From a virus: DNA of 64,000 nucleotides. This document shows positions 1-63,957 of this stretch, piece after piece. The notes beneath the pieces are model-generated. The model made no database searches. It saw only the letters and a list, made by a program, of their open reading frames with translations, and was not told the origin of the DNA. Every line of letters starts with the position of its first letter. Within the stretch, counting starts at the first letter, position 1. The stretch spans positions 206,994 to 270,993 of the IMG/VR virus record IMGVR_UViG_3300045988_139374; one strand, 5' to 3'. The translations under genes and the position numbers were made by a program.

Positions 1-126
1 TATAAATTGGAATCCTTCGCTTAAATCATTATTACCAATAATAGTATTAATTAAAATTTTATCTAGTGATATTGTATATCCATTTATAGAACTAATAGCT
101 GTCATCATTTTAATAGAAGCGTCAGA
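1..126 (-). other. start-less DAS cassette X0 (partial, runs off left edge)
   Basis: The minus strand opens at a reverse copy of TGACGCTTCTA (core 114-124). It reads SDASIKMMTAISSINGYTISLDKILINTIIGNNDLSEGFQFI for all 42 codons to the window edge, with no start codon or RBS. Confidence 0.6.
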
Positions 127-153
127 CTTATTTATAAAGGAGGTAAATTTATT

Positions 154-807
154 ATGGGAATTATTATAAATGAAAAGTGTGTTACTTATAATAAAATTTA
201 TGATATTAAGAATACTAAAATAGATAAATATAAATTGGTTATCATTGGTGAAATACATGGATCTTCTATGATTGGGGTTTATGATAAACTTCTTAAATCT
301 TCTCATTATGATTACTTTCTTGCTGAATTTGCTTATGATGATAAAGCTCTTACTAGAGAAGATATTAAATATAAAATGGATCATGCTACTAATGGTGGAA
401 TGGGTCCGTGTGATTATCAATATAATTATTGGCTTTATGAATTAGCATATAAATATAATATTCCTTTGATTGGTATTGATAGAGGAGATACTAATAGTTT
501 TAAATCTAGAGAAGAAGAATTTAAAACTAGAGAATCTATTATGATCAATACTATTCAACAATATTCAGGAAAAGGAAGATGCTTAGTGCAAATAGGAGAT
601 GCTCATGTAAGAAATATTCCTATTAGTAAAGAATATATTAAGCAATATAATTATGATGATGAATTCTACGAAGGAAATATTGATAATCAAACAGTATCTT
701 TTGCAAGTCCAATATATGAAAAATATGTAAATGATCCAAATGCAATTATATTTAGAAATAAAAAAGAATATGAAGATGAACAAAAATTTTTAAAAGAAAA
801 TTCATAA
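154..807 (+). CDS. hypothetical protein
   Basis: 217-codon ORF with AAGGAGGT at 137-144 and a terminator hairpin after the stop. The EIHGS...GDAHV motifs only vaguely recall ChaN/Tiki-type folds, so no function is assigned. Confidence 0.8.
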   Translation: MGIIINEKCVTYNKIYDIKNTKIDKYKLVIIGEIHGSSMIGVYDKLLKSSHYDYFLAEFAYDDKALTREDIKYKMDHATNGGMGPCDYQYNYWLYELAYKYNIPLIGIDRGDTNSFKSREEEFKTRESIMINTIQQYSGKGRCLVQIGDAHVRNIPISKEYIKQYNYDDEFYEGNIDNQTVSFASPIYEKYVNDPNAIIFRNKKEYEDEQKFLKENS

Positions 808-810
808 AGA

Positions 811-848
811 TAGAGGTAGAGTATTTTTACTCTACCTCTATTATATTT
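811..848 (+). terminator. rho-independent terminator
   Basis: TAGAGGTAGAG (811-821) pairs with CTCTACCTCTA (830-840) and is followed by a T-rich run. Confidence 0.75.
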
Positions 849-870
849 TAATTATTGTACTAAATAAATA

Positions 871-913
871 TATAATATAATAATGAGATAGAAGGAAGAA
901 AGAGTACTTCTAT
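871..913 (+). promoter_or_regulatory. promoter-like -10 block plus conserved 5' hairpin (variant copy)
   Basis: TATAATATAATAATGA is followed by the stem ATAGAAG (888-894) / CTTCTAT (907-913). The hairpin sequence is the same as at 35097-35122 and 40176-40199. Confidence 0.55.
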
Positions 914-943
914 TGGCCTGTAAATAAAAGTGGAGGTATTAAA

Positions 944-1756
944 ATGATTGATGGATTAAAGATGCTTACAGAAGACGATGTAAAAATCGAATTCTTAGAA
1001 TCAGCAAACAATGGAATATGCTATATTGCAATGGTTGAGTATTCGATTAGTTATGGCAAAATCGAATATAAGATGTATTCCGTAAGAACTGTTGTAAAAA
1101 TACCAATTTTTAGAACTCGTCGTTGTATTATTGTAGATAATATTCCTGATAATGAATATATCGATGCTAATTACGATAATGTCAAATGCCGTTATGATAA
1201 TATGGCTAAAACATTATTTGAAAATAATAGAATAGTATATGATGGTGTCGAAACCATTGATCAAAATGCGTTTGTATCTAAGATTTGCTTGGATGCATGT
1301 GTAAAAAAGATCAATCGCGCTACAGCAAAATTATATTTCCAAAATATGAACATCAGTTTTTTAAACATTGATGTGAATAAAAAACTTCCGACTCAGTTGG
1401 ATATGACTATATTTATCAATGGTAATCAGGAAACTATTAGCATTATGAATGTGAACAAAATTAAAAAGCATGGCGCTTCTCGTGCAAGGTCTAATAGTTT
1501 TTATATCATTGATAAGAAAGTTCATAAATCTATAATTTATTGCATGCTAGATGCAATAAGAGAGATATATGGATATGGACTATACGAATATGGTCTTGAC
1601 AGATGCGATTTAAAATCTATTAATGATATTCTCAATAAATATAACATTGAATATGGCGATGATATATTTATTGATATTGAATCTAAATACGAATATATCA
1701 TTAATATGATAGATAATCATATTAATGATAATACTGATGAAATGGTATATCAATAA
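944..1756 (+). CDS. hypothetical protein
   Basis: 270-codon ORF with a GGAGG RBS (931-935) and a strong terminator after the stop. Confidence 0.85.
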   Translation: MIDGLKMLTEDDVKIEFLESANNGICYIAMVEYSISYGKIEYKMYSVRTVVKIPIFRTRRCIIVDNIPDNEYIDANYDNVKCRYDNMAKTLFENNRIVYDGVETIDQNAFVSKICLDACVKKINRATAKLYFQNMNISFLNIDVNKKLPTQLDMTIFINGNQETISIMNVNKIKKHGASRARSNSFYIIDKKVHKSIIYCMLDAIREIYGYGLYEYGLDRCDLKSINDILNKYNIEYGDDIFIDIESKYEYIINMIDNHINDNTDEMVYQ

Positions 1757-1763
1757 TATAAAA

Positions 1764-1803
1764 GGAGTGGGTTCCATTCGCCCACTCCTTTTATTTTTTT
1801 TTT
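1764..1803 (+). terminator. rho-independent terminator
   Basis: GGAGTGGG (1764-1771) pairs with CCCACTCC (1781-1788), followed by a long T-run. It is nearly identical to the terminator at 58162-58198. Confidence 0.85.
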
Positions 1804-1828
1804 CAAAAAGTAGATTAAAATACAATAA

Positions 1829-2122: not shown

Positions 2123-2126
2123 ATAA

Positions 2127-2633: not shown

Positions 2634-2634
2634 G

Positions 2635-2820
2635 TATGACGCTTCTATCAAGCGAACTGTTGTTACTCTTAAATATAATAATACCGAAGTAGGATGTAAA
2701 TTTACATTAGGAGCTCCAGTTGGAGGATATATACTTACAGAAATTAATAGCTGGATTGTAATACGTATGGATAAAAATATGAATATTCTATATTTGGAAT
2801 TTATGTTCGTACTTGGTTAG
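2635..2820 (+). other. start-less DAS cassette C4 (61 codons, family C)
   Basis: Motif core at 2637-2647. The ORF reads YDASIKRTVVTLKYNNTEVGCKFTLGAPVGG..., and KFTLGAPV matches QFTLGIPISV of cassettes C1 and C3. Confidence 0.6.
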
Positions 2821-2888
2821 GTGACGGATTAATTGAAAAAATTCAATATATAGATAATTATTATAAAGCTACTATATTTTACATTTAA
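2820..2888 (+). pseudogene. decayed cassette remnant
   Basis: Degenerate motif TGACGgaTTaA (2822-2832, 8 of 11 matches) is followed by 22 codons ending KATIFYI-stop, which is the family 3' tail. Confidence 0.45.
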
Positions 2889-2994: not shown

Positions 2995-5451
2995 ATGGGA
3001 CTTAATATGAACTATCATTTTTTCCTTGAAGGATATCAGTCTCATTGCCATATTCCTGATTATATTAGGGCTAATAATTCTCAGATTCCAGTAGATGAAT
3101 CCATTCTGAAGGCTACACTAGAATTTGCTAATACTTGTAGAAATTCTGTTTCCACTATTACTTCTGTTTCTGAAGCAGATGCTGGTACTGTTCAATTTGA
3201 GCAAATTTATTCTTCTCTATCCACTGCTATTAGATCTGTAGATTCTGTAAAAGCTACTATGCTTAAGACAATAGAAGATGCAAGAATGAATGTAGATAGA
3301 TCTAGAGATCATAAAAACGATCAAATTGAATCTCAATATAATATTGCAGAGAGAGTAAAGTATCTAGATAAAGCTATTCATTTTGCTAGCACATCTAATC
3401 CTGATGATCTAATGTATAATTCTACTGCTAAGCTTTCTGCAGATATTACAGTTAAAGATCAATCATTCCCCAATCTGAATGCTATTAAAGATATTCTTCA
3501 TGGAAAGTCGATTGCTATTCCTGATAATATCACTGCTTCTTCTGATTATACTACTGGTATGATCATGGATAAAGATTCTGTTCTTTATACTCTGCTTGGT
3601 AAGTATTATTCTCCTGTAGAATCTGCTAGTATTATGCAATTTGCAGTGAACTTCACTAATGATTTTATGGATAATACTAAAATAGATCATAAGATTGAAG
3701 TACAGGATTATCTAACCGCATTCTCTAATATCAATGCAGTAGATGATATGATCAAGTATCTAGATAATCTTAAAGCAACTACAGAGTCTGCTTTTAATGA
3801 TTGTCTAAAAACTATGTATGATTACTGTGATCATCTTAAGGGAGAAGCTTCTACTAATTATAAAGAAAATTATGGTACTGTAATTAGTGCATTGATTAAC
3901 AATGTACAGAATATTATCTGTGCTGCTAATATTGTCACTACTAGAAAAGTAAATATTATTTCTAATCTATATGGTGCAAATGGAGATAGTTGGAAGACTA
4001 TTGAATTTGCCCATTCTCTGATTGGTAAATACTATGATAAGATCATTACTCCTAATGTAATGGCACAAGATGCTGGAAAAGATATTCCTAATAATGCTAT
4101 TGTATTCAATGGAGCAGATCAAGTTCAAGAATTTTATAATATTCAGAGCCAGTCTAATATTCTAGATATGCTTATTGAGAATGCTTATAATGAATATATG
4201 TATGACGATGCTCTAGAAAAGGTTTTGCAAGAAGCTACTGCTTTGCATGAAAATGATAATAACGGTGGAAATGCTACTCCTGCAAATGGTGGACAATCTG
4301 TAGGCTCTGGTGGTGATCAAGGATCTACTGGACAAGCTGGTCAGCAAGCTGCTCCTGCACAACAGCAAAATGCTAATAATGGCCAGCAACAGCAACAATC
4401 CGGAACTCAGAATTCTGCCAATAATACAAATGATAAGACTAAGAAGAATAAGTTTGGTATTCTTAATTGGCTGAAGCAAATGATGGGCAGACTCGGTGAA
4501 GCTATCAACAAGTTTAAACTTCGTGTTGAGGAAATGATTACTAAAGGCCCTGATAAAAAGTTCTGGGCTGATAATAAAGATAAGATTAGAAATATTGATA
4601 TTTCTGGTACTGAAGTTAATCAGTGGTATCAATATAAGTTTGATATCTTTAAGAATTCTACTTATATCAAATTCAATCCTACTGATAATACTCTTAAGTC
4701 TGATACTGATCTACAAGATGCTATTCTTTCTAAGATTAATGGCGGTACAAAACCCAATATTAATACTGATGAAAAGGATACATTTGCTACCAAGATCAAT
4801 AAAGTATATCAGGGTGAATATATTAATATTGAAAATGGTAATGGCAAGACTCTAGGAGATATTCAATACAATAAGGATGCTGCATTTACCTTTGTTGATC
4901 AATTTATCAATAAAGGATTTAATAGTGAATCTCTAGGCTCTATTACTGAAGATTATCGTAAGATTGATGAAGACTATAAAGATGCTGCTAAGAGATATGA
5001 TGAATATGCTAATCAGTTTAAGCAGACTCAATCTCAGAATCAAGCATCTAATAATTCTGGTGAACCTAAATCTAATGGTAACACTTCTGGAAACTCTGGC
5101 AATCAAAGTGGTAATACACAACAGCAGCAAGCAAATGCTGAATCTGCATTCTCTGATTTTTCCTCTGGATTTAATCTGGCTGAATGCCTTGGATTGATGA
5201 ACTGTGGAAACGCTATTAATGAAGCAGATATTAAGCCTGATCAATCTACTGCACAATCTGCAGATCAAGCTAACGGTACTATTGATAATGCTGAGCTTGA
5301 TAAGATGATTCATCGTTGCTTCTCTATGAATATTTCTGCTATTACTGCTAAACTTACTAATGCTATGGCAGCATATAAACAGAATATGCAACTCTTTAAA
5401 GCAGTTACTAAAGCATCTGCTGTAAAGAATAAGGATAATAATAAAAAGTAA
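2995..5451 (+). CDS. large hypothetical protein with Q/N/G-rich low-complexity linkers (possibly virion-associated)
   Basis: 818-codon ORF with an AAGGAG RBS. Two low-complexity stretches are present (NGGNATPANGGQS...QQQQQSGTQN and SNGNTSGNSGNQSGNTQQQQ). Confidence 0.85.
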   Translation: MGLNMNYHFFLEGYQSHCHIPDYIRANNSQIPVDESILKATLEFANTCRNSVSTITSVSEADAGTVQFEQIYSSLSTAIRSVDSVKATMLKTIEDARMNVDRSRDHKNDQIESQYNIAERVKYLDKAIHFASTSNPDDLMYNSTAKLSADITVKDQSFPNLNAIKDILHGKSIAIPDNITASSDYTTGMIMDKDSVLYTLLGKYYSPVESASIMQFAVNFTNDFMDNTKIDHKIEVQDYLTAFSNINAVDDMIKYLDNLKATTESAFNDCLKTMYDYCDHLKGEASTNYKENYGTVISALINNVQNIICAANIVTTRKVNIISNLYGANGDSWKTIEFAHSLIGKYYDKIITPNVMAQDAGKDIPNNAIVFNGADQVQEFYNIQSQSNILDMLIENAYNEYMYDDALEKVLQEATALHENDNNGGNATPANGGQSVGSGGDQGSTGQAGQQAAPAQQQNANNGQQQQQSGTQNSANNTNDKTKKNKFGILNWLKQMMGRLGEAINKFKLRVEEMITKGPDKKFWADNKDKIRNIDISGTEVNQWYQYKFDIFKNSTYIKFNPTDNTLKSDTDLQDAILSKINGGTKPNINTDEKDTFATKINKVYQGEYINIENGNGKTLGDIQYNKDAAFTFVDQFINKGFNSESLGSITEDYRKIDEDYKDAAKRYDEYANQFKQTQSQNQASNNSGEPKSNGNTSGNSGNQSGNTQQQQANAESAFSDFSSGFNLAECLGLMNCGNAINEADIKPDQSTAQSADQANGTIDNAELDKMIHRCFSMNISAITAKLTNAMAAYKQNMQLFKAVTKASAVKNKDNNKK

Positions 5452-5462
5452 AAAAAAATAAA

Positions 5463-5491
5463 GAGGAGTAGAGAATCAAACTCTACTCCTC
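5463..5491. terminator. bidirectional terminator hairpin
   Basis: GAGGAGTAGAG pairs with CTCTACTCCTC, between convergent genes 2995-5451 (+) and 5520-5795 (-). Confidence 0.75.
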
Positions 5492-5519
5492 TTATTACAT
5501 TATTATAATGCAGATTCAA

Positions 5520-5795
5520 TTAGATTGGAGCAAGTGAATTTTTAGCAATAGCCGCTTTAAGTTTGGTATTGAATTCTTTATCTGCTTTACATAGTCGGTC
5601 AAAGATATTTGGTTTCGATTTCTTCGGAACCTCAATAACTTTCTTATCAAGTGTTGGGAATAGATTTGCTACATTTTCAGGAACTCCAGCAGGGATTGTT
5701 TTCATAGTAACAATGTTTGTAGATCCATCATCATTATGTACAATGAATTCATTTTCCTTGTAAAAATCAAAAGCTTTGTAAGTATTGTTAGACAT
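5520..5795 (-). CDS. hypothetical protein
   Basis: 91-codon ORF with an AAAGGA RBS on the minus strand upstream of the ATG at 5795. Confidence 0.75.
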   Translation of the reverse strand: MSNNTYKAFDFYKENEFIVHNDDGSTNIVTMKTIPAGVPENVANLFPTLDKKVIEVPKKSKPNIFDRLCKADKEFNTKLKAAIAKNSLAPI

Positions 5796-5913
5796 AATGT
5801 CATCCTTTCTTCTATCATACGATAGAGCTAAAATTGTTAATAAATATTGAAACTTTGGTACCTCTAATACTATTATTTCATATTTATAATATCTAATTGA
5901 ATCTGCATTTTAT

Positions 5914-5957
5914 TAAAAATAATCCGGGTAGAGGTTAATCCTCTACCCGGTTTTTAT
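5914..5957. terminator. terminator hairpin
   Basis: CCGGGTAGAGG (5924-5934) pairs with CCTCTACCCGG (5940-5950) and is flanked by A- and T-runs. It lies immediately downstream of the minus-strand gene that ends at 5958. Confidence 0.8.
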
Positions 5958-8900
5958 TTATTGAATATTATACCTATCTAATGGTAATGTAGGAATAATT
6001 TTTCTACACATGTTATCGATCTTCTTAGAACTATAAACTCCAATACCACCGATAAACATACTGAACAATCTATCATCAATGCTTTTATCAAGATCTCCAG
6101 GACTTACTAAACTGGCATCTTTAGTAACTCTAAGTTTCAAATTAGCAATTGCTAGGATAGTATAGACGAATTGGCTACACACCATCTCAGTTTTGTTCTT
6201 AAATTCATTTCCAAAGTCAGAAGCTTTCTTAAAGAAAATATTAATGATAGTCTTCATAGAATATTTGGTATCATCTTGATGCTTAATATACCAATCTACA
6301 GCATCTCTCATCATATCTCTCTGAGCTGCAGTGACAAACAATGCATGAACTTTGAATTTAATACTAGGATCAATTTTCCAATACTTCTCAATGGATTCAA
6401 TAGTGAATCCTGCAGACTTACCATCTGCAAAGACATTATTATTTGCATTGAAAGTATACATTTGTTTCATAGAAGAATCAAAGCTCATTGCTGCATGAGA
6501 CCATTCTGTATGAGTATACCATTCAATTGCTCTACTATGTAATGCTTTACCACTGAATAGGCAAATATACACAGGAACAATTTTATCCTTTAATTCTTCA
6601 TAAGTAGCTTTATTAAAAGAATGGATACTTTTGATATAATCTTCAGCATCAACTTCTCTAAAGATATGCATTGTATGCTTACTATTTCTAACTCTTTCCA
6701 ATGCTTCTTCATTAAATGGTATTTCAGGATTCCAACCAAGTATAGAGATTTCACTCTTGATTGCATTTTTTTGTTCAGAGTCACTAGTATTCTTCATTCT
6801 TACACAAAGTTCACTAATAACTCTTTTCCAAGAAGTTTCATCTACTACTTCTTCATGAGAAACATTTACATCAGAACTAAAATAATCAATTTTATCAGTA
6901 GGAGAATAATATTGATCAATAGGAGCAATAACCATATTAGAATTATCACTAGTATATCCATCTTGATTATTCATATATTTGGATAATAGTCTTGAATACA
7001 TAGTATCATTATCATATCCAAAGATATTATATGCAGTTCTGTTAGATAGAGTTCTCTTATCCTGATTAAGAGCAAGGTATTGATTATACTTTGTTTTCAA
7101 TCTATCAATATCTTCTTTACCTTTATTAGAAACAATATTATCTGGATAGATAAGTACTAGTCCATAATTCTTTTCTGCTTCCTCTGCTTGTTTAATTTTT
7201 GCTACATAAGTTGTAGCATCATCAGAAAAGACAGTATCATGGCTACTAGAAGTAGAAGCTTCATGAAGAGTATTTAGATTTGCTAGATTAGAAACCTGTT
7301 CTTCTAGTCTAGTAATAGGATCACCAAGAATAAAGGATCTTACCCCTTCACAGATATCTTGAATCTGTTCATCAAAACTCTGTACCTGCTCAAACCTAGT
7401 ATCATATTTAATTTGATCATCGGATAGAAGTTTAGAACCTTCTGTAAGCCTTCTATAGATATAGTCTCTAGAAACTTCTCCTGCAAAGAAAATCTTTCCA
7501 TAAGCTTCACACATTGCTAGCTCGTCATATAGCTCTTTTGCTGTTTGCTTATCTTTGATCTTAAACGTGGTATATTTTTTAGAGATTTTAGATTTATCAG
7601 TTTTAAAGACTTTATAGAATCCATGTTCCTCAGGATCTACAGAGTACATTGTATATTGTACAGGATCTTTAGTAATAGAATAATTAAATACATTATTTTG
7701 CATATGCTGGATAATATAATAATTATCTTTATCACATTCATAAGGAATAGGATTCGGAGTTAGAGGAATAGCAGATCCAATAGCACCAGACATAGACTCT
7801 GTAATCTTGCTATTAGTAATAAAAGGCTTAATCATTTTTTCATCTTCAGGAAGGCAAGCATTTACATAATCATTTAGATTCATACCATTCTTAATTTTAG
7901 AGCTATTTACAGAGCCAACATATAGATTTTTATAATTACCCCAAATCCATGCATTTGCAATAGCAATTTTAAGATCGAAAATACTATTATAAGGACCATG
8001 AATTCCAGTTTGTCCATACCAAGCATTTTCAATCCAATAATATTTTCCATTCTGCTTATAATAAGCAGCAGTATGAGTTTTTCCTCCAGGAGAATTTAGA
8101 TTATTATATTCAATTACAAATAATCTTCCATTAGAAATATCTTTAGTAGACAATTTACTATGAATATAATTTGCTTGATCGTGACAATCTCCATATCCAT
8201 ATTCTTCTACCTCTTCAGGAGATAGAAGAATTCCAGTAGATTTATATCTAATATTTGTATTCATCCAACTATAAAGCTCTTTAGGATAATTACTATTAGA
8301 TACAAATTCTAGCAAAGTAGATTCATTTACTTTAACAGGATTTGCTTCTAGGGTCATATAGTACAAATCATCGTCTTCATAATAGACTTTAAATCCATAT
8401 TCATCATAAATCATTTTAGCAAGTTTATTATTCTTATCCACAGAGAGATACTTGCAGTTCATAGTTTTAGTAGCGAAATCAAGAATCTGCTTACTCAAAC
8501 CATGACCCTTATAATCTTTCATAATATCTAAACTTACAATCCATTTAGTACCATCATCTAGATATTCGCAAGATCCTACTTGAGCTACTAGATTCTCTTT
8601 ATCAAACCACATGTAGCCGTCACATTTATAAGTATCAGTATCTTTACATCTAACATGGCGTAGATCAGGATACTGCTTTTTATACTTTTCAATGATAGTT
8701 TCAGTAATATGAACCCTCTTTAGAGAAGATAACTCAATTCTATCCTTAGGTTTAAAATTTCTATCTACGGTACTAGCAGTTTCTAGAAGCATACTTTCAT
8801 TAACTTTAATAACAGGATCCTTATATCTATGAGCCATGTTATACTTTAGTACTGCCATGATGCTCAATACCTGACTAAAGTCATTATTAACTACTCTTAC

Positions 8901-9617
8901 ATAGCTAAATTCATTAAGCTGCCTAATAGCTTCTTCCTTTGCTCTAAGCTTCAGCTCATCTTCTCCAGTACGATGAGGATGATTATTTGGATTACTTCCA
9001 CCATCTTTAATCTCAATAATAAGATTATAAGGAATATAATAGAAATCAGGAATATAAAGATGAGTCTTTCCTTCATATTGATATTTAATACTAGGAGCAG
9101 GAGCTAGAATATCTTCAGATTCACAATGCATTACTTGATCCATAAACTGAAGAAACTTTCTCTCATAGCTGCCAAAATACTCAATTTTTCCACCATCGGC
9201 GAAAGTATATTCTCCATGCATTTTACGTCCAGCTAGTGCTTTTCTCTGGACATATTCTGCATACTCAGGATCAGTCTGAAGACGTTCAGTACCATATTTC
9301 TTTTTTGTTCTTTCTGCAACCATCTTCTTATATGCTTCATGACATTTAGGATCATTACAGAGTCTTTCGTATCTTCCTTTATCTTCATTCCAATCAGTAA
9401 CATTGCCGCACATGATGCAATGTCCTTCAGTTTTATTATTAATAGTATTAAAAGCAACTCTAAGCGCAGTATATCCTTCAGGAATTAAATCTTCATGTTT
9501 TTCTTGAATATGAATATGAAGCTTTGCTCTTGTGAATCGTCCTTCACAATAAGGACACTTATATTTTTTCTGGTAAGTGCTCTTAGTAGCATTGGAAACC
9601 ATAGCTTCTGATTGCAT
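5958..9617 (-). CDS. multi-domain polyvalent protein: Zn-finger plus PD-(D/E)xK-like N-terminus, GNAT acetyltransferase, transglutaminase-like Cys protease, permuted papain-like (YiiX/NlpC-P60-type) C-terminus
   Basis: 1219-codon ORF with an AAGGAGG RBS. Motifs seen: CPYCEGRF...HIHIQEKH; YIPDF...IIEIKDGG; KDYKGHGLSKQILDF (GNAT Q/RxxGxG/A); GYGDCHDQANY...THTAAYY (Cys-His); SRAIEWYTHTEWSHAAMSF...VCSQFVY (permuted papain-like). Confidence 0.6.
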   Translation of the reverse strand: MQSEAMVSNATKSTYQKKYKCPYCEGRFTRAKLHIHIQEKHEDLIPEGYTALRVAFNTINNKTEGHCIMCGNVTDWNEDKGRYERLCNDPKCHEAYKKMVAERTKKKYGTERLQTDPEYAEYVQRKALAGRKMHGEYTFADGGKIEYFGSYERKFLQFMDQVMHCESEDILAPAPSIKYQYEGKTHLYIPDFYYIPYNLIIEIKDGGSNPNNHPHRTGEDELKLRAKEEAIRQLNEFSYVRVVNNDFSQVLSIMAVLKYNMAHRYKDPVIKVNESMLLETASTVDRNFKPKDRIELSSLKRVHITETIIEKYKKQYPDLRHVRCKDTDTYKCDGYMWFDKENLVAQVGSCEYLDDGTKWIVSLDIMKDYKGHGLSKQILDFATKTMNCKYLSVDKNNKLAKMIYDEYGFKVYYEDDDLYYMTLEANPVKVNESTLLEFVSNSNYPKELYSWMNTNIRYKSTGILLSPEEVEEYGYGDCHDQANYIHSKLSTKDISNGRLFVIEYNNLNSPGGKTHTAAYYKQNGKYYWIENAWYGQTGIHGPYNSIFDLKIAIANAWIWGNYKNLYVGSVNSSKIKNGMNLNDYVNACLPEDEKMIKPFITNSKITESMSGAIGSAIPLTPNPIPYECDKDNYYIIQHMQNNVFNYSITKDPVQYTMYSVDPEEHGFYKVFKTDKSKISKKYTTFKIKDKQTAKELYDELAMCEAYGKIFFAGEVSRDYIYRRLTEGSKLLSDDQIKYDTRFEQVQSFDEQIQDICEGVRSFILGDPITRLEEQVSNLANLNTLHEASTSSSHDTVFSDDATTYVAKIKQAEEAEKNYGLVLIYPDNIVSNKGKEDIDRLKTKYNQYLALNQDKRTLSNRTAYNIFGYDNDTMYSRLLSKYMNNQDGYTSDNSNMVIAPIDQYYSPTDKIDYFSSDVNVSHEEVVDETSWKRVISELCVRMKNTSDSEQKNAIKSEISILGWNPEIPFNEEALERVRNSKHTMHIFREVDAEDYIKSIHSFNKATYEELKDKIVPVYICLFSGKALHSRAIEWYTHTEWSHAAMSFDSSMKQMYTFNANNNVFADGKSAGFTIESIEKYWKIDPSIKFKVHALFVTAAQRDMMRDAVDWYIKHQDDTKYSMKTIINIFFKKASDFGNEFKNKTEMVCSQFVYTILAIANLKLRVTKDASLVSPGDLDKSIDDRLFSMFIGGIGVYSSKKIDNMCRKIIPTLPLDRYNIQ

Positions 9618-10153: not shown

Positions 10154-12100
10154 ATGAACGTAAACGATCTAAATCGTACAGATACTCAAAGAGTGGTAAT
10201 TTCTCAGCCTGGTGTATCTAATAATAATGCTACACAAAATATTAGTATTTCTGCTGTTAAGCCTGAAAACGCTCCTATTTCCATTAATGCAACCAATGGA
10301 GCTTCTGGAATTGAAGAAGATACTAATGGAAATCGACCCGTGATTAGAATTAATCCTAATCGTAGAAAGGGTCATCGCTCTGTTGGTGCTAATGAGACTA
10401 TTGAGACTGTGAATCCTGATGATTATATCCAGACTCAGACTAAGAAGGTAGATCCTAAGTTCTTCCAGGATAAGTATATGACTGAGCTAGATGCTGCAGT
10501 TGCTCGTAAGCAGCAGGAATATGTAGATGCTGTTGAAAGTATGAGCGCTCAAGATGCTGCTAATAGAGAAAAGGTTGAAGCAGGCCTAGAAGATGTCGGT
10601 GGCGAAATTCAGTATATGCCCGATCCTCTGCACCATCCTATGAGTGAAGATGAAAAGGTTAAGACTACTGCTCCTATTAATCCTAATCGTGGCATTGTTA
10701 CTGAAGATCTAGAAGATGAAGTTCTAGATAATGATGATGAGGAAGAAGAGATTTCTTCTCCTGTGAGAATTCAGGGTAGTGACTATCAGCCTATTAATGA
10801 TCCTTTCAATACTCCTGCACATCAGGCAGAGCCTACTTATGGTTCTGGACCTGAGTCTGATGAGGTAGATGAAGATATCGTTGATGATGAGCCTGTAGAA
10901 GAGGAAGAGATTATTCCTGAGGCTCATCCTTCTAAGGTTGAGGATCTTGACACTAAAGTTATTAGTGTTACTTCTGATGATCTAGAAGATATTGATGATT
11001 CTGACTTTGATGAAGAAGATGATGAAGATACAACTTACGATGATGATGAGGAGCAACAGAAGCTGTCTGAAGCTGCTGCTAATAATCTTCGTAATGATAT
11101 TATTACTAAGATTATTAATGCTGGCCGTAAGATGAATACTTCTCAGCTAGTTGTTTCTAATAAGGTCATTAATATTAAGGACGCTATGAAGAATATGAAG
11201 ACTACTACTGCTAAGACTGCAGTATGGCCTCTAATGTTTGCAAATCGTCCTTATATTGCATCTGCTCTTAAGGGTGCTGAGCTTGCTATGCTTAATGAGG
11301 ATAGTAATAATAATGGTATTATGACTGTGCCTCAGATGCAGATTCTCTTTGAGCACGATGTTAATCCAAATCGTCCTTCTACTGTTGAAGCTTGGGCTAA
11401 GACTATCCCTTATGCAGATTTGGACAATGTCTTTGCTGCACTATTTATGGCATCTCTTGACGGAGCTAATTTTATGCCTTGCAATTGCTCCAATGATAAG
11501 TGTCTGAATTCTTGGCTGTCTGATGATGTACCTATGGAGAAGCTCATGCACTTTACAGATGATGATACTAAGAAGAAGTTTGAAAAGATTAAGAAAATGG
11601 AACTAACTCCTGAAAACTCTGGAGCATATGAGTCCGTGGTTACTGTTATTAATAATAATCTAGCCGTTGGCGTTAAGATTCCTTCTCTGTATACAATTAT
11701 GTATGAAATTGGAGCTCTTGATGATGCATTCGTAAATAAGTATGAATCTATCATCAATATTACTCGCTTCATTGATCGTCTATATATGATTGATGAAAAT
11801 GGTAATATGTATCCCATTGGATGGAAAAAGTATCCTGGCGATCATGCTAAGTCTTTCAAGTCTAAGATTATCACTTATGCTAAGATTCTTAAGAATCTAG
11901 ATCCTGTTGAATTTGGCGTCGTATCTACTCTGATTATTACTATGATGAATAATATGCATGCCAATATTACTTATAGTATTCCTAAGTATACTTGTCCTAA
12001 GTGTGGCCATAGTAGCAACGAGGTTGAAGTGAGTCCTCGTAACCTACTTTTTTTGCGCCAGCAGTTGGTCCGTATAGCAACTTCTCTTGGAACAAAATAA
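10154..12100 (+). CDS. structural-module protein with acidic D/E-rich linker and C-terminal CPKCGH zinc-ribbon-like motif (zero-frame product)
   Basis: 648-codon ORF with a GAAGGAGA RBS. It carries a -1 slippery site 15 codons before its stop. Confidence 0.85.
   Translation: MNVNDLNRTDTQRVVISQPGVSNNNATQNISISAVKPENAPISINATNGASGIEEDTNGNRPVIRINPNRRKGHRSVGANETIETVNPDDYIQTQTKKVDPKFFQDKYMTELDAAVARKQQEYVDAVESMSAQDAANREKVEAGLEDVGGEIQYMPDPLHHPMSEDEKVKTTAPINPNRGIVTEDLEDEVLDNDDEEEEISSPVRIQGSDYQPINDPFNTPAHQAEPTYGSGPESDEVDEDIVDDEPVEEEEIIPEAHPSKVEDLDTKVISVTSDDLEDIDDSDFDEEDDEDTTYDDDEEQQKLSEAAANNLRNDIITKIINAGRKMNTSQLVVSNKVINIKDAMKNMKTTTAKTAVWPLMFANRPYIASALKGAELAMLNEDSNNNGIMTVPQMQILFEHDVNPNRPSTVEAWAKTIPYADLDNVFAALFMASLDGANFMPCNCSNDKCLNSWLSDDVPMEKLMHFTDDDTKKKFEKIKKMELTPENSGAYESVVTVINNNLAVGVKIPSLYTIMYEIGALDDAFVNKYESIINITRFIDRLYMIDENGNMYPIGWKKYPGDHAKSFKSKIITYAKILKNLDPVEFGVVSTLIITMMNNMHANITYSIPKYTCPKCGHSSNEVEVSPRNLLFLRQQLVRIATSLGTK
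12049..12055 (+). promoter_or_regulatory. candidate -1 programmed ribosomal frameshift heptamer T_TTT_TTG
   Basis: The zero-frame codons are ctT TTT TTG, which fits the X_XXY_YYZ pattern. The -1 frame opens at 12043 (after TAA 12040-12042) and stays open to 12279. Confidence 0.5.
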
Positions 12101-12279
12101 TTCTAGCACGACATTTTAAAGGTGCTACATCTATATCAGAACTGAATGATCTTCCTGTATATGAACTTCAAATGCTTAATTATATTTGTAATAAAGAAAG
12201 AGAAGAGGAAGCTAAACTTTCTGATAAAGAAAAAGGAGCTAGACAATTTGGTAGAATGATAGAAGACAATCTATCTTAA
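12055..12279 (+). CDS. -1 frame C-terminal extension of 10154-12100 (frameshift product)
   Basis: 74 sense codons plus stop in the -1 frame (APAVGPYSNFSWNKIILARHFKGATSISELNDLPVYELQMLNYICNKEREEEAKLSDKEKGARQFGRMIEDNLS). They fill an otherwise unannotated 190-nt gap and end just before the RBS of gene 12294. Confidence 0.5.
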   Translation, partial: APAVGPYSNFSWNKIILARHFKGATSISELNDLPVYELQMLNYICNKEREEEAKLSDKEKGARQFGRMIEDNLS

Positions 12280-12293
12280 AGGAGTAGCTTCTA

Positions 12294-12617
12294 ATGAATA
12301 TGCCTGATTTCATTGGACAGACATATCAAGCATCTGTTTATCCTATAGATGATATACTTAGATTCTTTGACCATTCTATGGCTATATATGACATCATTAA
12401 GAGCTATAATGTGACTGGTGTGTATGGTATCACAGATAACAACCATTATTCTCTTCAAATGCAAATTATGGCTGCTAATCCTGCCGATTTAGATAGTATG
12501 GTAAACTATATTAATTGTACTATTCATAATCGTAAGGATATGTATGGCAAAACATTTCAAGTAAATGCTCAATCTATAGGAACCTGTGCTAGTCTGTCTG
12601 TACAAGAGTGTCGCTAA
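12294..12617 (+). CDS. hypothetical protein
   Basis: 107-codon ORF with an AAAGGAG RBS and a downstream terminator. Confidence 0.8.
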   Translation: MNMPDFIGQTYQASVYPIDDILRFFDHSMAIYDIIKSYNVTGVYGITDNNHYSLQMQIMAANPADLDSMVNYINCTIHNRKDMYGKTFQVNAQSIGTCASLSVQECR

Positions 12618-12648
12618 ACTTCCAATTGCTTAGATATTATAAAAATGA

Positions 12649-12680
12649 GACCAATAGGAGAAATCCTATTGGTCTTTTAT
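12649..12680 (+). terminator. rho-independent terminator
   Basis: GACCAATAGGA pairs with TCCTATTGGTC, followed by TTTT. The hairpin resembles the one at 17339-17362. Confidence 0.8.
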
Positions 12681-12738
12681 TGTTTTATTACAATAAAAAC
12701 TGTACAATAACAAGTATAAAGAAAAGGAGTAGCAAAAT

Positions 12739-13794
12739 ATGGAAGACCAGATTAAGACTAATATCGGTAAAATCTTTACTAAGTATAATAAGGATACAGA
12801 TTCATTTGATATGATTCGTATTGTTCATACTGATAATGATAGTATTTTCTATAGAAAATTAAATGAAGATTATAATTTTGGGCAGAATAGAATTGAGTTT
12901 CTTAAGATTAACGAATTCAAAGAAACCTTTAAGGATTGGGATGTATTGTCTCCTGATGGTATTTTGTCTTTGACAAATGCTGTTGTTACAGAAACAGAAA
13001 ATGGATCTCCTATTAGAGATATCATCATGATGTTTTTCATTAGAGATAATACTACTCATACCTTTAATCCTCAGAAGCCTTGCGTAATTGCGCGTCAGGC
13101 TATCAATAATATTTATAAGATGGCATTTGATGACCATGCTGATGATGTAGGAGTTTCTGTTACTGAAGATTGTATGCCTCCTGAATATACATTTGCAGAT
13201 TTTACAGCTGCTGAAAAATGTATTAATTCTTATCTTACTTGTGTTTATAAAATTGACACTCCTAAAACTCTAGCAGCAATTCTTAATAATGAAACCACTA
13301 CTGATATTCTTCACACTCTTTATCAGAGTGCCATTGATTATGATAAGAATACTATCATTAATTTCAATAAGGCAATTGAAGACGATTGCTATAAAGGATA
13401 TTGTAATACTCTATCTGCATTCATTGGTAATTCTGGATTGATTATTGATATCTATTCTAAACTTGGAATCGTAAAGGTAGATTTCGAATTGAAATCTAAT
13501 GAACCTATCAATGATGAGAATAAAGTATTTCTTTCTATGCTTTATGGTGGAATTACTATTGTAAAAGCAATTCCTCTTAAGTTTGGATTTGATATTAATC
13601 TATCTTGTATTAAGATGAAATATATGCTGGTAATGGATTCTACCAGTACTCTTTGGATTGTTCCTTTTACTTCTACAAAGGATGAGTTTAGCCCTGTAGA
13701 ATTTTACAAAATTACTGCAGAGCAAACTAATAAAATACAGGAAAGATTGAAGAAGTGTATTGAGTCGTATGATGCCATTCAAAATAATACCTAA
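12739..13794 (+). CDS. hypothetical protein
   Basis: 351-codon ORF with an AAAAGGAG RBS. Confidence 0.85.
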   Translation: MEDQIKTNIGKIFTKYNKDTDSFDMIRIVHTDNDSIFYRKLNEDYNFGQNRIEFLKINEFKETFKDWDVLSPDGILSLTNAVVTETENGSPIRDIIMMFFIRDNTTHTFNPQKPCVIARQAINNIYKMAFDDHADDVGVSVTEDCMPPEYTFADFTAAEKCINSYLTCVYKIDTPKTLAAILNNETTTDILHTLYQSAIDYDKNTIINFNKAIEDDCYKGYCNTLSAFIGNSGLIIDIYSKLGIVKVDFELKSNEPINDENKVFLSMLYGGITIVKAIPLKFGFDINLSCIKMKYMLVMDSTSTLWIVPFTSTKDEFSPVEFYKITAEQTNKIQERLKKCIESYDAIQNNT

Positions 13795-21771: not shown

Positions 21772-21779
21772 CTGAAAAA

Positions 21780-58147: not shown

Positions 58148-58161
58148 TCATTAATATAAAA

Positions 58162-58198
58162 GGAGTGGGTTTCATTCGCCCACTCCTTTTATTTTTTA
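58162..58198 (+). terminator. rho-independent terminator
   Basis: GGAGTGGG pairs with CCCACTCC, followed by a T-run. It is a near-duplicate of 1764-1803. Confidence 0.85.
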
Positions 58199-58255
58199 TT
58201 ATATTATCGACTTTTATATAATTTAGCCCCATTATATATTAGGAGGATTTATATT

Positions 58256-59761: not shown

Positions 59762-59762
59762 A

Positions 59763-61306: not shown

Positions 61307-61314
61307 CTAATATT

Positions 61315-61353
61315 AGAGGAATGGAGTAAAATCCATTCCTCTATTTTATTTTA
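61315..61353 (+). terminator. rho-independent terminator
   Basis: AGAGGAATGGA pairs with TCCATTCCTCT, followed by a T-rich run. Confidence 0.85.
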
Positions 61354-61356
61354 TAA

Positions 61357-61566
61357 TCTGACGCTTCTAATAAGATTAAGAGTACAGATTTTACATCAGG
61401 GTATCAATTCACATTAGGTATTCCAATATCTGTTGCATGTAAAAGTGACCATAATTGTATTGCATATATAACTAAATCATATTGGATATATTGTATGTAT
61501 TTTAGTACGACTGGTAGTGCTGATTATAAAATATATAATAGGCCTTGTATAGTATATTATATTTAA
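61357..61566 (+). other. start-less DAS cassette C1 (family C, 69 codons)
   Basis: Motif core at 61359-61369 with in-frame TAA at 61354-61356. The ORF reads SDASNKIKSTDFTSGYQFTLGIPISVAC...NRPCIVYYI-stop. Confidence 0.65.
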
Positions 61567-61571
61567 TTATA

Positions 61572-61612
61572 AACCAATAGAGAGAAATCTCTATTGGTTT
61601 TATTTTTTTTTT
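61572..61612 (+). terminator. terminator hairpin inside the cassette array
   Basis: AACCAATAGAGA pairs with TCTCTATTGGTT, followed by a T-rich tract (TTTATTTTTTTTTT). Confidence 0.8.
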
Positions 61613-61636
61613 GAAAATATATTAAAATTATAATAA

Positions 61637-61849
61637 TTTGACGCTTCTACTAAAATTAGGCATCAAGATATAAATATTACAGATAGTAGTGGATATACTT
61701 TTAGAACTGGAACACCTATATCTGCAGTATATATAGGAGATACAAGTAGTAATTATGCTATTATAACTTTTTCAAATGTAATTATGATAAAAGGTTTCGG
61801 ATCATTAGGTTCTAGTACTACAGGTACTGCTAGAGTATATTATATCTAA
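61637..61849 (+). other. start-less DAS cassette C2 (family C, 70 codons)
   Basis: Motif core at 61639-61649 with in-frame TAA at 61634-61636. FDASTKIRHQDINITDSSGYTFRTGTPISAVY...GTARVYYI-stop is followed by the degenerate motif ATCTAATGAtatTTC. Confidence 0.65.
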
Positions 61850-61904
61850 TGATATTTCACATCATAATAATTCTCGAAAACTTTTCATAAAGGAGATAAT
61901 TATT

Positions 61905-62408
61905 ATGAATTTTAATATGAAGCAAATCCATACTATCTATGAATCTGGCGTCAATGATCAGACTGGAGCAAATCTAGATAATACTCTAAGATCTGCAGAC
62001 CTTATGGAAATTTTTGATAATATCTGCCCTATTACTGGTGGCGTATATAAGGCAATGAAGAATGCTGCTGCTGATCCGCAGAATCTTAAAGTTACAGTCT
62101 CTAAGAATGGTGAAGGTGAAAAGGCAAGTCTTTTCATTGAAGCTGTAGAATTTATGACTTATGTAGAAGCTTGCGGTAAGACTATCGGTGAAGCAGCAGA
62201 TGATATTGTAGATGCATATCAAACTGATATTCCTGGCATGGCAAGCGATGATATTCATATTGTATTTCCTAGTGATGCTCTTAATAAGAATGATCTTGGA
62301 AGTCAGAATTATGGCAGAGATGTTAAGAATGACTGGGCAATGCAATTGATGACTGGAATTCGCAGATATGGTCTAAAGGCTAATATTGGTGTAGAAGAAA
62401 GTAAGTAA
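61905..62408 (+). CDS. hypothetical protein
   Basis: 167 codons with an AAAGGAGA RBS. The gene lies between two convergent cassette arrays. Confidence 0.8.
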   Translation: MNFNMKQIHTIYESGVNDQTGANLDNTLRSADLMEIFDNICPITGGVYKAMKNAAADPQNLKVTVSKNGEGEKASLFIEAVEFMTYVEACGKTIGEAADDIVDAYQTDIPGMASDDIHIVFPSDALNKNDLGSQNYGRDVKNDWAMQLMTGIRRYGLKANIGVEESK

Positions 62409-62454
62409 GTATTTATTTCCAGGTATAATAGATAGTAAAACATATTTGAATTAA

Positions 62455-62497
62455 AATAATTCACTAGAGATCCTTCTCTAGTGAATTATTATTTGCT
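62455..62497. terminator. bidirectional terminator hairpin
   Basis: TTCACTAGAGA (62460-62470) pairs with TCTCTAGTGAA (62475-62485). Confidence 0.85.
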
Positions 62498-63409
62498 TTA
62501 TCTTATCATTATAAGTGGAAATATGCCAGGATTTTTATCTCCATTACCATAATTGTAAACATCTTTGTCTATTACAGATCCATTAGATACACACCATGGC
62601 ATATCATAATAAGAAGAATGAGCATTACCATACGAAGTTCCTCTTAATCCTCTTAGAAGCGAGTAATCTCCAAATTGCCAAGTATTAAAATTAAAATATG
62701 GTAGTTTATAATTAGCTTCACCATCATCATAAACTGTATTATTTACACCAAAAGTACCAGTAATTTGACCAGCACTCATAAGAGCACCATAACATACAGT
62801 CCATTCATATCCAGTGGTATTACTACCAACATTAGCGCTATTAGACAGTAGCATTCTTCTTTTTATTAAATGATCTTTTAATATAGAATCATTATTTACA
62901 AATGAAGATTGTAAATAATTGTTAATTTTTTTATGAACACCAGTATTCATATAACCATTGCTTAATGACATATTTCCATTATCATATGTAAAAAACGATG
63001 TTGTAGGAATCATAAATATACCATATCCATTATCATAAGTAGTTCCATCTGAAGCAGTTTTATTATGCTCACAATCAAATCCAACTATTACCCATGTCTT
63101 ATTATATGTACCATCTTTAATAGTTATTGTAGAACCAATAGAAGCGTCATAATAGCCAGTAGCATGATTACATGTACTAAGAAAATTATCTACATCGCTA
63201 ATACTAGACCAAGTACCAAGATTCTTAACTTCATATCTAGTATTAGGAGGAGTAGTATCATGATCCAAATTACTGCTATCACCTAGAATTTTGATAATAA
63301 TAGATTGTATAGATGTATCAGCACTAAAGGATGAACAATCAGGCAATCCTCCAACTTCATAAATTGTAACTATATCTTTACCTAAAGATACTTTATTAGA
63401 AGCGTCAGA
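62498..63409 (-). other. start-less DAS cassette D (303 codons, composite D1 plus D2; tail-fibre-tip-like)
   Basis: Reverse motif core at 63397-63407 with an in-frame TAA just upstream on the minus strand. The ORF reads SDASNKVSLGKDIVTIYEVGGLPDC...HATGYY|DASIGSTITIKDG... and has a second in-frame motif copy at 63139-63149. The sequence is G/N/Y/T-rich. Confidence 0.65.
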
Positions 63410-63428
63410 TTATTTAAAATAAATATAA

Positions 63429-63656
63429 TTAAATATAATATACTATACAAGAACAGGTACCAGTAGTATAAGTTGCATAGCTACCCAGAAAAAATCTAAT
63501 ACATCGTATATAATATGATTTATTGATATAAGTAATATATGGAATCGGAACACCATTATTACTACTTACATTACGTGTAACAGATATTGGTATACCTAAT
63601 GTAAATTGATCTTCTGATGCAAAATCTACACTCTTAATTTTAGTAGAAGCGTCAGA
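63429..63656 (-). other. start-less DAS cassette C3 (family C, 75 codons)
   Basis: Reverse motif core at 63644-63654. The ORF reads SDASTKIKSVDFASEDQFTLGIPISVTRN...CSCIVYYI-stop. Confidence 0.65.
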
Positions 63657-63957
63657 TTGGTAGAATATAATAAACAATTGTATGAAGTTCTTGAAATGAA
63701 TACCTTGCAGATGTATCTTTTGCAGCATATAAAACATATATGCTTGTTCCATTTTCTATATGATACCAAGAATACCAAAAAATTGCATCACTATTATTTG
63801 TATTGCTTCTAGGATACATATCTGCAGATTTTTTATATATAGATATTGGAATAATAAAATCGCTTATATCTTTTATCTTTATATAATCTATTCCAGCACT
63901 AAATGCTTTATATGCATAATTAATTTCCATCTTATAAATTTTAGTAGAAGCGTCATT
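63652..63957 (-). other. start-less DAS cassette B4 (family B, 101 codons)
   Basis: Reverse motif core at 63945-63955. NDASTKIYKMEINYA...ISDFIIPISIYKKSADM...IFWYSWYH...HTIVYYILPI ends on the TGA inside the next motif copy (63652-63654). Confidence 0.65.

Follow-up and report, generated by a model that had tools for sequence, protein, structure and literature searches.

The window analyzed here is a stretch of 64,000 nucleotides (nt) with about 30% GC, taken from a human-gut jumbo phage of about 240–275 kb (IMG/VR record IMGVR_UViG_3300045988_139374, positions 206,994 to 270,993). It contains 16 exact copies of the 11-mer TGACGCTTCTA, 11 on the plus strand and 5 on the minus strand, which open reading frames devoid of start signals (referred to below as cassettes). 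Because related phages fuse a constant N-terminus in frame to relatives of these cassettes, the copies in the window are best read, on sequence grounds, as silent versions of alternative C-terminal domains of one protein. The whole arrangement is probably an archive of C-terminal fiber modules, in which the expressed N-terminal element, called the head in this report, is relocated at the DNA level by conservative site-specific recombination.

A scan of the window confirmed the 16 copies reported in an initial annotation of this DNA. Judged by dinucleotide-preserving shuffles, 0.72 matches are expected by chance even if one mismatch is allowed, and the 17 matches of that kind present in the window were reached in none of 100 shuffles. 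The 7-mer TGACGCT is absent from the rest of the window, whereas about 3.5 occurrences outside the 16 copies are predicted by composition. Every copy encodes D-A-S when read from the base after T; 13 of them head open reading frames (ORFs) of 60–302 codons, and one further copy is cut by the window start. An in-frame TAA is located two codons upstream of GAC in seven copies, more than the five that had been claimed as a minimum. As was also claimed, no Shine–Dalgarno (SD) sequence accompanies an in-frame ATG, GTG, or TTG near any copy in the window, and five cassettes have no start codon of any kind within their first 45 codons. ATGs without an SD sequence are present three codons upstream of the copy at 63945 and, in frame, at codon 9 of the copy at 22072, whereas the ordinary genes of the window carry strong SD sequences of the AAAGGAGG type. 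The shared 3′ end of most cassettes, (I/V)(V/F/Y)YI-stop, their grouping into paralogous families, and their placement after terminators or between transcription units all hold as initially described.

The relatives used for comparison are contigs of 190–288 kb from IMG/VR and from human-gut assemblies in ENA, several of them 70–97% identical to parts of the window (L-numbers denote related DNA loci or contigs, and P-numbers related proteins). In these relatives, too, the motif follows a terminator and a T-run, usually with ATAATC directly before TGACGCTTCTA, and opens start-less ORFs. A protein search with the cassette starting at 63407 retrieved relatives truncated by gene callers, as well as proteins of 423–442 aa, in which a constant N-terminus of 137 aa (MAIIDKIKVGSTTYDV...ALIYSMNQTLTSLN) runs straight into DASNK.... 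In the DNA of L119, a 273-kb ENA scaffold, AAGAAAGGAAAT is followed eight bases on by an ATG and 137 codons, which end in ...ACTTCGCTAAA and continue in frame into TGACGCTTCTA ATAAG.... This is an expression-site copy of the kind that the initial annotation anticipated in related genomes; none is present in the window. The constant N-terminal region of the relatives ends with ...TTCGCTAAA, followed by TGACGCT and TCTA. The N-terminal 140 residues, used as a query, matched 79 proteins; in about 60 of them the N-terminus is conserved at 78% identity or above, and it is followed by dozens of unrelated DAS... tails of 68–107 aa, many of them ending in VYYI or IVYI. Altogether, the public data hold more than 50 distinct in-frame fusions of the head to a cassette, and the fused tails include relatives of at least five window cassettes, namely those at 61639 (P0136, P0138, P0140), at 22712 and 23257 (P0139, P0166), at 63644 (P0172), and at 114 (P0164).

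Head module, its probable relocation, and its junction sites

The head is found in at least 12 different flanking contexts, with one detected copy per genome sampled. L120, L121, and L140 are 91–97% identical to the window in the region between 52 and 62 kb, and their heads are located at three different sites. The site after the terminator of a fiber-repeat gene is silent in L119 and L003, where it contains two different cassettes, and is occupied by the head in L133. In turn, the site after the terminator of a 293-aa gene is silent in the window (61359) and, with another cassette, in L120, and it carries the head in L121. In L121, identity to the window is 94% from 54172 up to the end of the core at 61365. 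A head of 944 bp comes next, after which the alignment is taken up again, at 93%, from the start of the following core (61639) as far as 62408; the head occupies the place of the window unit 61366–61638, with both boundaries exactly at a core. The cassettes at one given site also differ between genomes. The silent archive of C-terminal modules proposed in the initial annotation agrees with the in-frame motif found within long, SD- and ATG-bearing ORFs of the relatives, except that the head, and not only the cassettes, changes place.

The larger differences in gene order among the relatives have their breakpoints in cassette clusters. Two genes of the window, 154–807 and 61905–62408, which are 61 kb apart, are convergent neighbors in L092 (1884–3475) and in L136 (10215–11713), with or without a cassette between them, and L081 contains an inverted block of a cassette and a gene, the cassette being devoid of its first 31 nt. 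L123 (IMGVR_UViG_3300045988_127334) terminates at 160781, at a distance of exactly 55 nt from the first base of the left core of the head, and several further contigs end inside or just after the head. An assembler behaves in this way if more than one sequence in the sample precedes the left end of the head; the end of L123 has the signature of an assembly-graph branch and is suggestive of heterogeneity within the sample.

In all 11 head loci that span both junctions, the head measures 835–945 bp from core to core. It carries an SD sequence, an ATG, and the 137 codons, and it is flanked by 7-bp direct repeats of TGACGCT. At each of these 11 loci, the left junction consists of the upstream flank of a silent site followed by TGACGCT ATTACGAAGTAGTC, and the right junction of ACTTCGCTAAA TGACGCT followed by the cassette. 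The head begins with TGACGCT ATTACGAAGTAGTCTGAGAAATCTGCC... and ends with ...AATCAGACTCTAACTTCGCTAAA TGACGCT; its left end reads TGACGCTATTACGAAG... and its right end ...TTCGCTAAATGACGCT. As at silent sites, the left TGACGCT is preceded either by the end of another cassette or by a terminator that is followed by a T-run and ATAATC. Read directly, the left end (ATTA-CGAAGT--AGTCTGA) and the right end (TCAGACTCTAACTTCGCTAAA) of the head, each about 20 bp long, are imperfect inverted repeats of one another.

Inside the head, a terminator-like hairpin is located 70 nt from the left end, and an inverted copy of the site (AATCTGACGCTACTA) is found about 160 bp upstream of the ATG; this inverted core could permit an inversion that would uncouple the N-terminus. 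The leader contains five boxes resembling TTGTGAAGAC-N4-TTTAAGA (L119, 9700–9900; also L120, L121, L122, and L141), which can be described as repeated TGAAG-N-TTTAAGA and are represented by TTGAAGAAYTTGT in a distant clade. These boxes, partly similar to the right arm of the head (ACTTCGcTAAA), could serve as accessory recombinase-binding sites or as a promoter array. The TTGTGAAGAC boxes are not enriched in the window, and no family in Rfam matches the leader of the head. An exact match of 23 nt to the left end of the head (TGACGCTATTACGAAGTAGTCTG) is present in an otherwise unrelated contig, L132 (Ga0180008_1009576, reverse complement 464–486), and may be due to chance, given the size of the collection.

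The profile of 112 non-redundant silent-type sites reads (A)(A/G)T(C/A) TGACGCT TCT A N T A A. The right arm is TCTA in 70 of the 112 sites, with ACTA, TCTC, TCTT, and TATC also represented; at two junctions between head and cassette, the core is followed by AGTA and by TATA, and expressed fusions also use TCTC and TATC. Two distant clades, the N-termini of which are 52–54% identical, retain TGACGCT, the right head arm ..TTCGCTAAA, and the left head arm, the latter as ATTGCGAAG.. or TTTGCGCAG... The cassettes of these clades begin with DAI.., DAL.., DAY.., or DAM.., with a different cassette-side arm. Since the distant clades keep TGACGCT but change the arm on the side of the cassette, the obligatory element is the 7-mer, the 11-mer being this 7-mer extended by a clade-typical arm that is further constrained by coding. 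The initial proposal of exchange at the 11-mer is borne out as far as the position of the junctions is concerned, with the crossover unit reduced to TGACGCT. Within the core, D is always encoded by GAC and A always by GCT in a genome of 30% GC. A decayed copy in L120, TGATGCTTCTG (GAT GCT TCT G), still encodes D-A-S, so the protein does not need GAC, in agreement with the early suggestion that conservation acts at the level of nucleotides. The overlap region of a site-specific crossover must be identical in both partners, a requirement with which the constancy of the 7-mer agrees.

Candidate recombinase, proposed mechanism, and alternative explanations

A tyrosine recombinase of 329 aa is encoded in L119 at 5018–6007, 3.5 kb from the head. 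It is conserved at 91–99% in all four related IMG/VR contigs and at 62% in a fifth jumbo phage. In the distant L142, a separately annotated ORF of the integrase family, which was not compared with the recombinase of L119, lies 2.6 kb from the head. Among the NCBIfam models, the enzyme scores highest with XerA (210.6 bits, cutoff 220), then with XerC and XerD, always below the equivalog cutoffs, whereas its scores with two integron-integrase models, 101.9 and 71.1 bits, fall far short of the respective cutoffs, 265 and 435. The closest sequences in the PDB are those of a XerC-like protein (top), XerD, and XerA. The loci examined revealed neither a transposase nor a serine recombinase.

Inverted arms around a central region, as in lox, FRT, dif, and the att sites of phage lambda, constitute the core-site geometry of tyrosine recombinases; in sites of the Xer/dif type, the arms measure about 11 bp and the central region 6–8 bp. 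When the two ends of the head are joined on paper as ACTTCGCTAAA-TGACGCT-ATTACGAAGTA, they present imperfectly inverted arms of this kind, which are kept across clades, and the silent sites retain only the core and a short right arm. The Xer-like tyrosine recombinase is most probably the catalyst, because it is conserved in a large, apparently virulent phage and because the geometry of the sites is of the appropriate type.

In the proposed relocation of the head, the 11-mer would mark the 5′ edge of promoterless, start-less cassettes for alternative C-terminal domains. Conservative recombination at a 7-bp TGACGCT overlap would excise the head as a circle, the joined ends of which would be two inverted arms around the 7-bp center; the junction of the circle is expected to read ACTTCGCTAAATGACGCTATTACGAAG, and the excised form would contain ACTTCGCTAAATGACGCTATTACGAAGTAGTC. 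The head would then re-insert at another TGACGCT, and the cassette immediately downstream would be translated as its C-terminal domain, while the terminators upstream of the other cassettes and their missing start signals would keep them silent. Ordinary cassettes would move likewise, core to core. What the sequences show directly are the silent cassettes, their in-frame fusions in the DNA, the boundaries and varied positions of the head, its exact insertion between two cores in L121, and the deep conservation of core and arms; we infer that a circle is formed, which enzyme acts, how often switching takes place, and that the protein serves in host recognition.

It is quite possible, if short of likely, that the system operates on the scale of the genome as an “integron in reverse”, with the Xer-like recombinase hopping the head among perhaps at least 50 dispersed silent receptor-binding cassettes. 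In that broader version, and just as tentatively, the head would comprise the SD sequence and ATG, an assumed promoter, and the virion-anchoring half of the fiber gene. If this is true, each lytic burst of the jumbo phage would be a mixture of host-range variants, which could explain how uncultured, widespread gut jumbo phages cope with diverse or phase-varying host surfaces.

Several observations weigh against relocation of the head as outlined above. The head, the recombinase, and a reverse transcriptase (RT) are not found in the 64-kb window, and all evidence for expression comes from the relatives. The candidacy of the recombinase draws on its conservation and on its occasional proximity to the head, and in contig 125976 the two are separated by about 100 kb; the terminal inverted repeats and the 7-bp direct repeat of the head fit a transposase equally well. 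A pattern search for the circle junction detected no circular or tandem head junction in assembled metagenome and viral contigs, and the positions of the head could differ only between strains, on an evolutionary time scale. Contigs assembled from short reads across the 0.9-kb head may be chimeras of co-occurring strains, a risk that does not affect single junctions or the case of L121. Searches of Pfam and PHROGs left the head protein unnamed, and Foldseek found no significant fold match in the PDB and BFVD. Two of the 16 copies, at 21825 and 2637, head disrupted frames, which is not surprising in copies that would mostly remain silent. The divergence of the cassettes, which had been suggested earlier as a check on the archive, corresponds to dN/dS of 0.34–1.6 between orthologs or paralogs (dS 0.08–1.2); this range is compatible with fast-evolving binding domains and is no proof of purifying selection.

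The most serious of the alternatives is that modules have been exchanged only in the course of evolution, by rare recombination between co-infecting relatives and without any programmed switching. It is supported by the origin of all differing head positions from different samples or assemblies, by the absence of the circle junction from the contigs searched, and by the decay of two window cassettes. We nevertheless regard it as unlikely, since an identity of 7 bp is far too short for homologous recombination and the junctions are exact to the base. Structured inverted arms are conserved in clades with 52% identity of the N-terminus, GAC GCT is kept at 112 sites against AT-biased codon usage, and three different sites are occupied by the head in genomes with a divergence of only about 6%; the end of contig 127334, 55 nt into the head, is also what an assembly-graph branch would give. 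Considerably less probable is a transposon origin of the head, which would then be a non-autonomous element similar to a miniature inverted-repeat transposable element, mobilized by a DDE transposase acting in trans, with a 7-bp target duplication and a strict choice of TGACGCT. No transposase was seen at any of the loci examined, whereas the tyrosine recombinase is conserved, and ordinary cassettes, which do not have the inverted repeats of the head, are also exchanged core to core at the same sites. Although the imperfect inverted repeats of about 20 bp and the direct TGACGCT repeats would suit such an element, the absolute identity of the “duplication” at all sites corresponds to the requirement for a crossover overlap.

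A fixed expression site, to which cassettes would be brought by inversion or insertion as in a classical shufflon, a Min-type system, or an integron, has a very low probability. The upstream neighbors of the head vary and match the upstream flanks of silent sites. Most cassettes form tandem direct arrays over tens of kb. Bringing them to a fixed site by inversion would turn around much of the genome, a deletion between two direct sites would be lethal, and attC-like hairpin sites are not present. This holds despite a number of features shared with such systems, including a constant N-terminus that is combined with variable C-termini through an asymmetric site, the presence of cassettes on both strands, head-to-head pairs of motifs about 25 nt apart in L056 and L083, gene blocks inverted between relatives, and variation of the cassettes at a given site between genomes. 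The shufflon was among the parallels drawn in the initial annotation; a pure inversion shufflon cannot work with tandem direct arrays dispersed over the genome. Joining of a common 5′ exon at the RNA level, another of the initial suggestions, is unnecessary, since the fusions exist in the DNA of many assemblies. The window viewed by itself does show start-less ORFs, often just downstream of TATAAT-like sequences, as would also suit independent small genes with the motif as a promoter or initiation signal. There is, however, no room for intron-like sequence between adjacent cassettes, Rfam gives no match for the head leader, and five cassettes have no start codon within the first 45 codons; the probability of either version is close to nil. 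A nuclease target that would seed cassette exchange, also mentioned initially, is not favored by the anatomy of the element.

Other readings of the motif were considered and rejected. A phage promoter or a leaderless start signal is ruled out by the missing start codons and by the DNA fusions to a normal gene head, and stop-codon readthrough or a polyprotein by the different frames of adjacent cassettes (motif positions modulo 3). A recoded genetic code or a suppressor tRNA was dismissed because the window contains no tRNA genes and its ordinary genes fit the standard code. Group I or group II introns and trans-splicing were set aside for want of intron space between the cassettes and of an Rfam match. 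Copying of cassettes by an RT was discarded as well, the enzyme being that of an ordinary diversity-generating retroelement (DGR) with its own template repeat (TR) and variable repeat (VR) beside one type of cassette; the RT does not travel with the head. A near-motif, TGAAGCTTCTA, at 7253–7263 on the minus strand was rejected as an expression site, since the protein in question is unrelated to the head and about 0.72 such matches with one mismatch are expected. This near-motif, probably a chance match, has the same codon phase (x-E-A-S) and lies inside the ORF 5958–9617 (1219 aa), which has an N-terminal match to an endonuclease family and a region similar to GNAT acetyltransferases.

Encoded protein and cassettes of the window

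A role of the protein in a fiber or in receptor binding is probable, as indicated by sequence matches and a predicted model. The gene beside the L119 site matches Phage_fiber_rpt and tail-fiber PHROGs. An alternative cassette of 177 aa (DAYLPIAGGTMTG...) scores 23.7 bits, against a cutoff of 25, with the intramolecular chaperone (IMC) domain of Peptidase_G2. The Peptidase_G2 intramolecular-chaperone domain is found in fibers and spikes. The large cassette, as the target of a retroelement in L119 (see below), points in the same direction. In the AlphaFold (AF2) model of P0138, a long helix ending at DAS is directly followed by a small, confidently modeled β domain (predicted local distance difference test, pLDDT, 85–92); the prediction, made for the monomer, is poor in the N-terminal part. 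Pfam gave no match for seven cassettes searched.

In L119, a complete DGR is located directly downstream of a large cassette, which holds the expressed position in that genome. It consists of a VR at 11170–11258, a TR at 12250–12338, and an RT at 12388–13779; TR and VR share 85% identity, most of the differences fall on adenines of the TR, and the 3′ end of the large cassette is GC-rich and A-poor. Domain swapping and DGR mutagenesis thus seem, from the sequence of L119, to be layered on one gene, and in a system that works as proposed the DGR would add diversity at the level of single points. No RT or TR was found in the window, including the vicinity of the silent copy of the large cassette (62498–63407, minus strand).

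The large silent cassette of the window, cassette D (62498–63407, minus strand, 302 codons), consists of an 86-codon N-module followed by a C-terminal domain. This domain corresponds to the target of the DGR in relatives, in which homologs of the cassette are fused to the head as the proteins of 423–442 aa. A second exact 11-mer is present within it at 63139–63149 on the same strand, in frame and reading YY-DAS-IGS. According to the initial annotation, each copy opens a start-less ORF; this one does not begin a separate cassette, as it lies in frame inside the 302-codon cassette starting at 63407. All relatives seen read YYGAS or YYGAT at this position. If functional, the site at 63139 could be an alternative docking site, from which the lectin-like domain would be expressed without the N-module of 86 residues.

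Two more cassettes follow on the minus strand, one of 74 codons from family C (63429–63654), a close relative of which is fused to the head in P0172, and one of 100 codons from family B (63652–63955), the stop codon of which is the TGA of the next motif and which has the SD-less ATG upstream. On the other side of cassette D, the plus strand carries a cassette of 68 codons from family C (61359–61566), located 3′ of the terminator of the 293-aa gene, and one of 69 codons (61639–61849; DASTKIRHQDINITD...ARVYYI), the ortholog of which is the expressed cassette in L121/P0138 and likewise in P0136 and P0140.

Near the window start, cassette X0 (1–124, minus strand, motif at 114–124) begins with DASIKMMTAISSINGYTISLDKILINTIIGNNDLSEGFQF, and its body is cut by the window start; a relative is fused to the head in P0164. 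It is followed on the plus strand by a cassette of 96 codons (1831–2122), which lies 3′ of a terminator and of an in-frame TAA and is devoid of ATG, GTG, and TTG in its first 45 codons, and by one of 167 codons (2129–2633), the homolog of which directly precedes the head in L136. The initial statement that the D-A-S frame remains open for 61–304 codons applies to most copies, but not to the next one (2637–2887, plus strand), where this frame is open for 60 codons up to a stop at 2820 and the conserved ...ATIFYI end (up to its stop at 2887) sits in a different frame. Nor does it apply to the cassette of family A at 21825–22066 on the plus strand, in which the D-A-S frame is open for only 20 codons, a shift of 1 nt in a (TA)n run having moved the remainder (...GYELAGTMIG...ANILYI, followed by the stop) into another frame. 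In this very AT-rich DNA, 14 of the 16 copies of the motif, corresponding to 13 of 15 different cassettes, open frames with no disruption within the available sequence. The breaks, at about 2790–2820 and at 21859–21876, may represent real decay, slippage-prone tracts, or assembly errors.

The cassette at 21825 opens a tandem cluster of six on one strand, extending to 23476. Its other members are two cassettes of family B, of 109 codons (22072–22402) and 100 codons (22411–22714, with the TGA of the next motif as its stop codon), one of family A with 80 codons (22712–22955; DASIKKLNNIYI...ANIVYI), one of 94 codons (22962–23247), and another of family A with 72 codons (23257–23476), all on the plus strand. 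Cassettes of family A are fused to the head in P0129, P0139, P0166, P0169, P0173, P0174, and P0180, and close relatives of the one at 23257 are fused in P0166 and L136.

The terminators preceding the cassette clusters, at 1756–1801, 21776–21812, 58150–58203, 61318–61345, and 61568–61600, are of a few repeated hairpin types. The hairpin GGAGTGGGTTCCATTCGCCCACTCC with its T-run is found at both 1762–1801 and 58160–58203, and the same types recur before the motif sites of relatives; the terminator and ATAATC may be part of the repeated unit. Public gene calls of silent cassettes (P0002, P0015, P0019, P0054, and forms of 287–296 aa) make use of internal TTG or ATG starts or of an upstream extension into unrelated sequence, and annotation pipelines systematically miscall such cassettes as small independent genes. 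Among the other genes of the window, large ORFs match the RNA polymerase β-subunit families of jumbo phages, a DNA polymerase, and a helicase. A blastn search with the window segment 21000–28900 revealed no DNA match among GenBank phages.

Comparison with known systems

Comparison of the cassettes and the head with known recombination switches acting on the C-termini of adhesins and fibers reveals partial similarity to several of them. The shufflon of R64/IncI1 plasmids (Rci, sfx, PilV) also consists of a constant N-terminal part and alternative, start-less C-terminal segments, joined at a short asymmetric site, likely by a tyrosine recombinase in the present case as well, with a changed specificity for the recipient or host as the outcome. 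Sites of the sfx type have a 7-bp central region and one conserved arm. The shufflon is, however, a single compact locus with inverted sites and works by inversion only, whereas here the sites are mostly tandem and direct and are distributed over at least five loci in 64 kb. Moreover, the unit that appears to relocate comprises the ribosome-binding site, the start codon, and the N-terminus, flanked by direct repeats. By score, the candidate recombinase is Xer-like.

The fiber switches of phages Mu (Gin) and P1 (Cin) and of p15B (Min, with six crossover sites) likewise combine a constant 5′ part of a phage fiber gene with alternative 3′ parts, and Min gives many fiber combinations. Gin, Cin, and Min are serine invertases, acting on crossover sites of about 26 bp in a single invertible region beside the invertase gene. 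In contrast, the present system is characterized by a direct core of 7 bp, dozens of cassettes, a head that appears to be mobile, and a tyrosine recombinase as the candidate enzyme; no serine recombinase was seen at the head loci examined, and the sites are direct rather than inverted.

Integrons (IntI, attI, attC, Pc) resemble the system in their promoterless cassettes bounded by recombination sites, in the dependence of expression on position, and in exact replacement, as observed in L121. In an integron, whole genes move while the promoter and attI stay in place; here, the apparently mobile part is the expression element with half of the gene, to which the cassettes, themselves fragments of a gene, are joined in frame. 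Hairpins of the attC type are not present, the boundaries of the cassettes being a motif of 7–11 bp with only terminators or nothing between the cassettes, and the recombinase scores far below the cutoffs for integron integrases. Modules that exploit Xer recombination, such as those flanked by pdif sites in Acinetobacter plasmids and the integrative mobile elements exploiting Xer (IMEX) such as the CTX phage, are small, have no recombinase of their own, and are found between short Xer-type sites in varied contexts. In the present system, the candidate enzyme is Xer-like by score, and the predicted head junction would have two inverted arms around a center of 7 bp. These modules carry whole genes and depend on the XerC/XerD of the host and on dif-like sites of 28 bp; in the present case, the candidate enzyme is encoded by the phage, the target is the core with a short arm, and insertion would have to be in frame within a coding sequence.

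An archive of start-less variants for one expressed surface protein is also known from pilE/pilS of Neisseria and vlsE/vls of Borrelia. There, sequence is copied non-reciprocally through flanking homology into a fixed expression locus, whereas here the shared sequence is limited to 7–11 bp, the junctions are exact, and the head changes its location. DGRs of the BPP-1 Mtd type diversify a C-terminal receptor-binding domain, and a true DGR accompanies the large cassette in L119; such elements act by adenine-templated mutation of one domain, whereas here whole domains are swapped.

No description of such a system was found in the literature searched, most subscription journals being outside that search, which makes this weak evidence of absence. 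With its 7-bp core, two short arms, and one recombinase, the system could provide a toolkit for the engineering of host range by in-frame domain swapping. The number of alternatives, with 16 in the window and over 50 different fusions among public sequences, is larger than in any known fiber switch. The system is related to the known switches of adhesin and fiber C-termini and is not a member of any of those compared here, and there is a substantial chance that its mobile-head architecture is new in kind. If the head does relocate during growth, programmed variation would be achieved here by a new architecture, in which the expression half of a gene moves to its alternative coding halves instead of these moving to it.

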